In this document: piece after piece, positions 11,891-12,483 of the stretch | Layout of the letters: each line of letters starts with the position of its first letter | Position numbering within the stretch: the first letter of the stretch is position 1 | From: a virus | Taxonomy: Duplodnaviria > Caudoviricetes | DNA: 64,000 nt | Reading direction: 5' to 3' (one strand) | IMG/VR virus record: IMGVR_UViG_3300036045_000523 | Coordinates: 2,117 to 66,116 of that record | Position numbers and translations under genes: made by a program | The notes under the pieces: generated by a model | The model's database searches: none | Seen by the model: the letters and a program-made list of their open reading frames with translations, nothing else | Told to the model about the DNA's origin: nothing

Positions 11891-11905
11891 TTGTGCCTAA
11901 ATAAG

Positions 11906-11955
11906 TGACACGATTTGAAATATTTTGACACGATTTGATGTGATTTGACACGATT
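11906..11955. repeat. Three direct repeats TGACACGATT(TGA) at 20-bp period; candidate integrase arm-type sites
   Basis: Copies start at 11906, 11926 and 11946. An imperfect inverted repeat tactaaaaaccta...tagggatttttagta follows at ~11977-12026. Confidence 0.7.
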
Positions 11956-12040
11956 CACAAAGCAAGAAACTATGACATACTAAAAACCTAAGCCTTATTG
12001 CATATGAGTTGTAGGGATTTTTAGTAATTTTAACGAAGCT

Positions 12041-12253
12041 ATTCCACTCCCCTGTACCGTTAGGTGCGTTGACTACCGACCCTTCAAATACAAGAATATC
12101 TAAAGGAATTTTACCAGTAATACATTCCCATAATAGTGTTTTTAAGTTGCTGCCTAGTTCTAGTCCCAAAGACGGATGCCAAAGTATATTAATACCAAAG
12201 TCAGCTACTAAATCACAGGCAGTTGGTTCGTCCGCATTCAAAAAGGACATTGT
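12041..12253 (-). other. hupS: Internal gene segment of the uptake hydrogenase small subunit (~residues 16-86)
   Basis: TMSFLNADEPTACDLVADFGINILWHPSLGLELG...IPLDILVFEGSVVNAPNGTGEWN matches cyanobacterial HupS as I recall it. No stops or frameshifts. The N-terminal MTNVLWLQGGACSGN and everything after GEWN are absent. Confidence 0.92.
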
Positions 12254-12345
12254 ATAGTCACTATAGGACAATTTTATGCCTTAAGCTCCTACCTAATTTG
12301 CTGCGGGGGGATGTGTTTCTTAGGAGTTAGGAGTATACTTTTTGA

Positions 12346-12414
12346 GGTGCGAACCTGGAACGGACAAAATTGACTGTAATGTATGTGGGATAACAGTTTG
12401 AGGGTGCGAACCTG
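12346..12414. repeat. Direct repeat GGTGCGAACCTG x2; candidate arm sites of the right-hand element
   Basis: Copies at 12346-12357 and 12403-12414. Confidence 0.5.
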
Positions 12415-12483
12415 AATCGCGATCACACAGTCCCAAACAAAAACAAAATGCGTAGCTGTAAGGTTTGTTGTTAGATGTCACAC

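Follow-up and report, generated by a model that had tools for sequence, protein, structure and literature searches.

Two phage-like elements probably cut the cyanobacterial hupS gene at two sites in a sediment provirus record

The stretch of DNA examined here (the window, 64,000 nucleotides) comprises bases 2117 to 66116 of the 66,116-bp IMG/VR record IMGVR_UViG_3300036045_000523, 2,116 bases of which precede it. IMG/VR files this record as a single provirus from a sediment metagenome, with an estimated completeness of 87%. The window contains an internal piece of hupS, the gene for the small subunit of the uptake hydrogenase, and is best explained as coming from a member of the Nostocaceae in which hupS is interrupted twice. 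We consider it likely that the cuts were made by two unrelated integrated elements, which left codons 16 to 86 as an island between them and are each removable by their own recombinase. The features around the island are the following (aa, amino acids; ORF, open reading frame; att, attachment site).

Positions 10514 to 10777, plus strand: 87-aa ORF ending at the integrase stop, with 54 to 59% identity (tblastx) to elements in genomes G441, G429 and G516.
Positions 10778 to 11890, minus strand: tyrosine integrase of 370 aa, starting 150 bp from the hupS border.
Positions 11906 to 11955: three TGACACGATT repeats with 20-bp spacing, between the junction and the integrase start.
Positions 12034 to 12052, minus strand: attL-like junction at the 3' site (GEWN/RF), where GAGTGGAAT (12041 to 12049) is hupS and AGCTTCG (12034 to 12040) is the element side.
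Positions 12041 to 12253, minus strand: internal hupS fragment of 71 codons (approximately 16 to 86, TMSFLNADEP...APNGTGEWN), with no stop or frameshift.
Positions 12246 to 12275, minus strand: attR-like junction at the 5' site (ACSGN/T), with the element arm AAAATTGTCCTATAGTGACTAT followed by hupS ACAATGTCC.
Positions 12346 to 12419: two 17-nucleotide direct repeats (GGTGCGAACCTGGAACG and a variant, at 12346 and 12403), 57 bp apart on the phage side of the junction.

A first-pass annotation, made from the letters alone, had reported 71 uninterrupted HupS codons (T16 to N86) with similarity lost abruptly at both ends, and both statements held. The codons are open from 12041 to 12253, inside a longer chance ORF (11897 to 12271, minus strand), and a phmmer search of PDB aligned ORF residues 4 to 80 with residues 12 to 88 of the [NiFe] hydrogenase small subunit 7uur_D (E value of 1.7e-29); the Pfam Oxidored_q6 match is weak on so short a piece (18.2 bits, cutoff of 27), and NCBIfam models assigned it to no family. 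When the fragment is aligned with intact genes, similarity ends within a few bases on both sides. It is 80 to 90% identical to HupS of heterocystous cyanobacteria (best 80 loci), and a tblastn search with full-length HupS found this piece alone in the 66,116-bp record (E value of 9.7e-42; next best, 0.78). The hupS reading frame is broken at both ends of the fragment, as the frame of a heterocyst-former gene is by an interruption element, and the window holds no second copy of either junction sequence. Compared with 14 relatives, the fragment has a proportion of nonsynonymous differences (pN) of 0.08 to 0.11 and of synonymous differences (pS) of 0.62 to 0.85, a contrast which shows that it is not long decayed and which gives no dates for the insertions. 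The direct repeats that the annotation had seen on each side, now delimited as three copies of TGACACGATT and two 17-mers, are real. Its statement that the 64 kb contain no other host gene stands as far as our annotation reaches, which gave phage and mobile genes only, with many ORFs assigned to no family.

At the left junction, the element (here element A) has a recombinase gene within ~3 kb of its border, and in fact at 150 bp. This integrase matched the PHROG integrase family phrog_1 (E value of 1.6e-7), scored 16.2 bits against Pfam Phage_integrase, which is under the cutoff of 27.1, and was assigned to no NCBIfam family. Close relatives were found in 3 of 389 Nostocaceae genomes, with full-length alignments (370 aa) at 67% identity in G441, 65 to 66% in G429 and 63% in G516 (mean column identity of 79%), the next best match being at 50%. 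R232, R311, H334 and Y343 are invariant in the four aligned integrases, and Y308 stands where, by eye, many family members have His. All three relatives adjoin a hupS piece ending at residue ~90 to 94, and both the site and the gene order (hupS piece, core, repeats, integrase start) are the same as in the window. Their borders are direct repeats over TGGAAYCGNTTTG, of 19 bp in G441 (GTCATTGGAATCGCTTTGC), 18 bp in G429 (GAATGGAACCGCTTTGCC) and 16 bp in G516 (GAGTGGAATCGTTTTG). The left junction agrees with the G516 repeat at 13 of 16 positions, and AGCTTCG, an imperfect copy of CGNTTYG, stands where the repeat reads CGTTTTG. In the relatives, too, the integrase ATG is preceded by repeats, along with a GTCAC..TTTAGGCAC box, and the three TGACACGATT copies in the window are candidate arm-type integrase sites. 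Of the left-element contents, only the integrase and the 87-aa ORF were common to the elements of the three genomes by tblastx; the small ORF, which matches no Pfam, NCBIfam or PHROG family, is a candidate directionality factor. Taken together, these similarities support the assignment of the left junction to a type of tyrosine-integrase element that uses this hupS site in G441, G429 and G516. More distant integrase relatives (41 to 48%) lie ~135 bp downstream of a tRNA gene (tRNA-Cys in five and tRNA-Met in one of the seven loci checked). Open-frame matches of 476 to 515 aa, the size class of XisA and XisC, are only 31 to 37% identical to the window integrase.

The right junction resembles a second, different class of hupS elements. 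The annotation had noticed that the bases standing in place of the codons for ACSGN differ from them by about one substitution per codon, a likeness that is real in comparison with relatives that use AGT for Ser (G516 and G441). It arises because these bases belong to a conserved recombinase-binding arm of the element that recurs in other genomes. The arm TTCTATAGTGACTATA or a variant of it occurs at the same place in G001 (locus L006), G002 (L066), G429 and G516, where it is followed within 20 to 60 bp by the start of a divergent recombinase of 512 to 517 aa. These four recombinases are mutually 71 to 91% identical, and the one scanned (G001) has Resolvase, Recombinase and Zn_ribbon_recom domains. 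In G001 and G002, the far junctions are on the same contigs, 258 kb and 104 kb away, with an inverted copy of the arm, and the reconstructed phage attachment site (attP) is a quasi-palindrome of TTCTATAGTGA, 22 bases and TCACTATAGAA, centered on ATGTC. The window motif CCTATAGTGACTATA, next to the ATGTC of hupS, has a single mismatch to the motif of L006 and L066. One 15-mer with three or fewer mismatches is not rare by chance in 64 kb, and the match carries weight because of its exact position at the junction in five genomes. These comparisons support the view that the right junction shares its arm motif with the elements whose serine recombinases interrupt hupS behind codon 15 (in G001, G002, G429 and G516), and by analogy with these relatives the crossover would be inside ATGTC. 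Splits at this site are infrequent: among 82 hupS copies in the best 80 loci, 80 are intact at both places and 2 (L006 and L066) are broken after codon 15, while 3 of the 60 hupS-bearing genomes in a sample of 401 genomes of the order are without the first 14 to 15 codons at the main locus.

The closest analog of the arrangement proposed here is G516, in which hupS pieces covering residues 1 to 19, 16 to 94 and 82 to 281 are collinear on one strand and separated by elements of 11.0 kb and 4.7 kb. Each border repeat occurs exactly twice, and deletion in silico between the copies gives 281 codons with no stops, 241 of the 281 residues being identical to intact HupS. Border repeats that restore the frame are therefore seen in this analog; the far borders of the window elements lie outside the record. 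With orthologous elements at both sites and all pieces collinear in G516, the interpretation of the first-pass annotation, namely, that the two ends are junctions of two different site-specific recombination elements, is supported at the level of sequence comparison.

Two side observations concern these genomes. In G429 (contigs C57 and C153, loci L159 to L161), hupS is in four pieces (1 to 23, 15 to 90, 82 to 281 and 275 to 320), and the second piece and the integrase are on the strand opposite to the third and fourth, which implies an inversion or a misassembly. G516 and G429 also have in common a third hupS cut, near residue 281.

The insert to the right of the fragment (element B) extends from 12254 past 64000, at least 51.7 kb, and judging from its genes, it is a complete-looking tailed (sheath-bearing) prophage. 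It has the hallmark virion and packaging genes of a tailed temperate phage, as listed below with the E values of the PHROG matches where available.

Positions 12484 to 13115, minus strand: gene for a PIN-domain protein (VapC-like, Pfam, 1.7e-13) with an overlapping small gene upstream, between the phage end and the att junction.
Positions 13276 to 14296, minus strand: 121-aa ORF and 147-aa repressor-like gene, the integrase-distal end module of the prophage.
Positions 14297 to 64000: body of the tailed (sheath-bearing) prophage, with long and open genes, running off the record.
Positions 14832 to 15962: replication/helix-turn-helix protein.
Positions 19878 to 21308: Dcm methylase.
Positions 30494 to 32842: tail fibers.
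Positions 33773 to 35596: portal (3e-58).
Positions 39492 to 40697: sheath (2e-20).
Positions 44334 to 45281: major head protein (1e-39).
Positions 45834 to 47012: head maturation protease (phrog_530, 1e-30).
Positions 48694 to 51120: lysozyme/peptidase.
Positions 51589 to 52506: MuF-like protein.
Positions 56461 to 57564: baseplate (2e-31).
Positions 60710 to 62143: large terminase (2e-37).
Positions 62016 to 62726: small terminase (weak Pfam match of 21.5 bits, under the cutoff of 27).
Positions 63263 to 64000: membrane protein, the last ORF of the window.

A collinear prophage of ~73 kb in G002 (contig C22) has 40 to 85% amino acid identity over nearly all genes. It is bounded by the two halves of one luciferase-like oxidoreductase gene, in the order N-terminal half, serine recombinase, membrane protein, terminases, virion genes, early genes, repressor, 121-aa ORF and C-terminal half. 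Homologs of the 121-aa ORF (55 to 75%) and of the repressor (68%) are there the last phage genes before the half of the target gene. Since the window prophage ends at hupS with the same type of module, the junction at 12254 should be the integrase-distal end, and the integrase and hupS codons 1 to 15 are predicted just past the end of the record. One prophage border is thus seen in the window (12254), and the integrase and the second border lie beyond the record; both are present in the G002 prophage. The PIN gene pair is extra cargo with nothing at the same place in G002, and the small gene upstream of the PIN gene matches no Pfam family.

The other relatives of the prophage place the integrase consistently. 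The terminase is 78% identical to one in G510 (contig C177), upstream of which are the small terminase, a ~69% homolog of the last ORF of the window, a large serine recombinase of 470 aa and an internal nifD fragment. A metagenome contig (L246) carries a 93%-identical remnant of the membrane-protein gene, adjoining a serine recombinase that abuts an internal nifH fragment. All three relatives in which the terminase-side end is visible (G510, L246 and G002) therefore have a large serine recombinase between the membrane-protein homolog and a truncated host gene, which is nifD, nifH and the luciferase-like gene, respectively. The serine integrases of this phage family are mutually only 24 to 36% identical (57% between that of G002 and the second one of L246), which fits swapping of integrase modules with a change of target. 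Against viral contigs, the terminase found 80 loci, the best at 62% identity, and the membrane protein alone found no relative.

Two of these loci have peculiarities of their own. The nifD fragment of G510 (C177, L244, 250 to 2305) is bounded by the classical nifD-element repeat CGGAGTAATCCC and by the start of the phage serine recombinase, the same layout of an island between two elements as that of the hupS fragment. In L246 (900 to 5000), the nifH fragment (92 aa) has a large serine recombinase gene on each side, the two being divergent, and one side has truncated membrane-protein and small-terminase remnants followed by host-like genes; this locus looks like a decayed prophage turned into an "element." A chain of small tblastx hits between positions 1 to 5650 of the G510 contig and the left part of the record raised the question of whether the record ends belong together; it was rejected, as the chain crosses the terminase region and the true match is on the other strand.

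The arrangement that we propose would have arisen as follows. Element A would have inserted after GEWN (codon 86), with its integrase 150 bp inside the border, behind three putative arm-type repeats and with a small conserved partner gene; it also carries genes of a second phage. Element B would have inserted after ACSGN (codon 15), and the window shows its repressor end, the one away from the integrase. Some 0.4 to 2.5 kb past window base 64000, we predict the large serine integrase of element B, the second junction and, preceded by an arm like TCACTATAG and the bases ACNATGTC, hupS codons 1 to 15. Each element would be excised by its own recombinase between short repeats, rebuilding hupS, and the timing would be that of differentiating heterocysts, by analogy with the nifD, fdxN and hupL elements. 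For this organism, the presence of the outer parts of hupS and of a serine integrase is thus a prediction, as is any excision and when it would occur. A bolder suggestion, tentative and somewhat short of probable, is that the right insert is a live member of a large temperate, sheath-bearing phage family of Nostocaceae that lysogenizes heterocyst-only genes and from which, as a source still alive, the classical nif and hup excision elements would stem. If so, excision of a phage in a terminal cell would rebuild a gene, as SPbeta does in Bacillus, and with two phage-like inserts in one gene, the expression of hupS would depend on two independent excision decisions.

Several observations weigh against the double interruption by excisable elements. 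Splits at the 3' site are rare, since none of the 82 hupS copies in the best 80 loci is cut after codon 86 and none of the 60 hupS-bearing genomes in the sample of the order is split between codons 86 and 87. The left junction retains only GAGTGGAAT and four of the next seven bases of a repeat that is perfect over 16 to 19 bp in the relatives; this may reflect a shorter repeat or decay of the site. The 66-kb record lacks hupL, the outer parts of hupS and a recombinase for the right element. No homolog of the hupS-site serine recombinases was found in it either (tblastn; best E value of 1.4), for which reason the right element is not filed in that family but only as using the same site; where those elements have their recombinase, 20 to 60 bp from the arm, the window has the PIN-domain gene pair. 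The window arm also stands at the integrase-distal end, although in sequence it is nearer to the arm that adjoins the integrase in the other hupS elements. This would need a flipped attP, which the quasi-palindromic site makes plausible. The contigs of four sequencing runs list no joint or loose end at 12041 or 12253, although contigs drop rare forms and 69 loose ends are unlisted. Finally, G441 has one intact hupS copy beside the split one (C1:4126544-4127503 and 3899572-3925849), so that a split copy need not be a working gene.

In a rather improbable alternative, hupS is no longer functional and its inserts are permanent: the fragment would be a relic, one or both elements would no longer excise, and the uptake hydrogenase would be lost or supplied by another hupS copy. 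The left-junction core leaves the relatives' repeat right after TGGAAT, 66 kb contain no right-element recombinase, and G441 keeps an intact hupS, all of which speak for a relic; the lack of a rejoined form in the contigs is weak evidence, given that contigs drop rare forms. Against this, the 71-codon frame is free of stops and frameshifts, and amino acid changes in it are few while synonymous change is saturated, although a large share of this divergence may be older than the insertions. The integrase has its full length and retains the catalytic-type residues that are invariant among its relatives, the genes of the prophage are open and long, and the lack of a right-element integrase is accounted for by the record stopping where the relatives place it.

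It is much less likely that the whole record is one mobile phage genome, with a captured hupS fragment beside attP and an intact hupS elsewhere in the host. Phage genes do flank the fragment on both sides, the outer hupS pieces are unseen, and the IMG/VR classification as one provirus with its completeness estimate would agree with a single phage. However, each side has its own head maturation protease (phrog_976, 6e-57, on the left; phrog_530, 1e-30, on the right), and no blastn or tblastx match is shared between the left and right parts, which indicates two separate phages. Moreover, the right part alone matches the whole G002 prophage end to end, a prophage that stops exactly at the repressor and 121-aa ORF module which in the window abuts the fragment, and the same fragment with the two junctions occurs in the G429 and G516 chromosomes with other hupS pieces nearby. 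Contigs also continue past the record start. What IMG/VR files as one provirus is a composite record, in which a host gene fragment connects two phage-like elements that are unrelated to each other; its single completeness figure of 87% is misleading, and database users should not take it at face value.

The record is present in four sequencing runs from two sediment-metagenome samples, and in all four both fragment junctions are spanned by error-free contigs (for example, 6549 to 13818 in X3), so that the joins are not a one-off assembly slip; these runs are possibly the record's own source and thus provide no independent support. Contig depth is slightly raised in the bin over the fragment junction. 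Logan contigs continue for ~150 bases beyond the record start, and an exact 38-base query of the right end of the window against metagenome contigs found no match.

The least likely history is a nested one. A serine-recombinase element of the G001/G429 type would have come first at the 5' site, and a phage arriving afterward would have displaced or interrupted the recombinase gene of that element, of which only the arm and possibly the two initial codons would survive. The window arm is indeed closest to the integrase-proximal arm of those elements, and the G429 recombinase starts with ATGCCT, a hexamer that also occurs 9 bases outside the window arm, with a stop after it. Nevertheless, a 6-base match at a loosely fixed distance (9 versus 22 bases in G429) is weak, the record contains no further part of such a recombinase gene, and the phage end module stands where the G002 prophage ends at its att site, which fits direct integration.

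It has been known since 1985 that nif and hup genes can be split by elements which heterocysts excise, and the guess that these elements are remnants of phages is an old one. In Anabaena (Nostoc) sp. PCC 7120, the hupL and nifD elements have border direct repeats of 11 and 16 to 17 bp (cited in PMC11249958). Element A resembles these two elements, with XisC and XisA, in having a tyrosine recombinase gene at one border, a heterocyst-expressed target gene and short border repeats. Judging from the available part of the relevant paper (Plant Cell Physiol 2024, PMC11249958), a hupS in three parts that needs two excisions is already known from Calothrix sp. NIES-4101. There, hupS-I is adjoined by CnXisS1, a tyrosine recombinase of ~382 aa for which the direct repeat is GTCATTGGAATCGCTTTGC (the ..WNRFA site); for hupS-II the paper lists a serine recombinase, and the hupS results are termed preliminary. 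The 19-bp repeat of G441 is the one printed for CnXisS1, and the window integrase is 67% identical to the G441 integrase beside it. In contrast to what is described for NIES-4101, the window has its second cut behind codon 15, where a complete-looking tailed prophage is inserted, while the left insert also has phage genes and shares only the integrase and the small ORF as cargo. As far as its accessible text goes, the survey of Hilton, Meeks and Zehr (2016; PMC4874684) had found four hupS elements in two variants, with serine and tyrosine xis genes; it describes no virion genes in the elements and puts their phage origin as a hypothesis. The predicted layout of the right prophage agrees with the pattern of that survey, in which a site-specific recombinase (xis) gene is located within ~3 kb of an element border. 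With the three-part gene and the hupS elements thus in print, the first-pass annotation had overrated the interest of the arrangement.

What is new is that both inserts are phage-like; this and the family of related prophages or their remnants in nifD, nifH and another gene merit further attention. Interruption elements have been reported as remnants without capsid or terminase genes (PMC3542288), a phage origin being put forward as a hypothesis (PMC4874684; bioRxiv 10.1101/629832, in the parts available), and in the literature outside subscription journals we found no complete tailed prophage described as a heterocyst-gene interruption element. Here, one gene has two phage-like inserts, one of them with a full virion gene set, and the members of the phage family, intact or decayed, in nifD, nifH and the other gene give a series from whole prophage to stripped element. 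If it works as proposed, the right prophage would most resemble in its mode of action SPbeta in spsM and skin in sigK of Bacillus subtilis, elements with a large serine integrase for which excision is described as rebuilding a gene needed only in a terminally differentiated cell (PMC4191935 and PMC5499854, in part). It differs from them in phylum, gene and phage, and its excision is a prediction. The strains behind G002, G510, G516 and G429 offer material in which the proposal can be tested.

The remainder of element A, which is at least 14 kb long and runs off the record, consists of phage-like cargo.

Positions 1 to 10513: rest of element A, continuing to record base 1 and beyond.
Just left of the window, in the first bases of the record: head maturation protease and repressor.
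Positions 568 to 2169: ParB-like/portal-C-terminal protein.
Positions 6380 to 7771: HsdR_N-like protein.
Positions 7872 to 9029: TnpB (OrfB_IS605 and Cas12f1-like TNB).
Positions 9067 to 9693: Uma2-family endonuclease.

Three paralogs in this element (568 to 2169, 5187 to 6329 and record positions 1622 to 2400) share an N-terminal part and a Cys-rich linker, and one of them extends into a domain that matches the C-terminal part of the "portal protein" family phrog_21 (2.7e-67). In the right prophage, a 167-aa protein (28144 to 28647) has a weak GGDEF match (E value of 8.4e-4; 19.6 bits, under the cutoff of 23.8). Within this prophage, the contigs from each of the four runs show breaks, loops back or skips at window positions 13793 to 13832, 16423 to 16465 and 16972 to 17004, with joints from 16465 to 16972 and from 17004 to 16424 or 13793 in addition to loose ends. 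Together with a doubled contig depth in the bin from 16008 to 16674, these breaks indicate short dispersed repeats within the right prophage.

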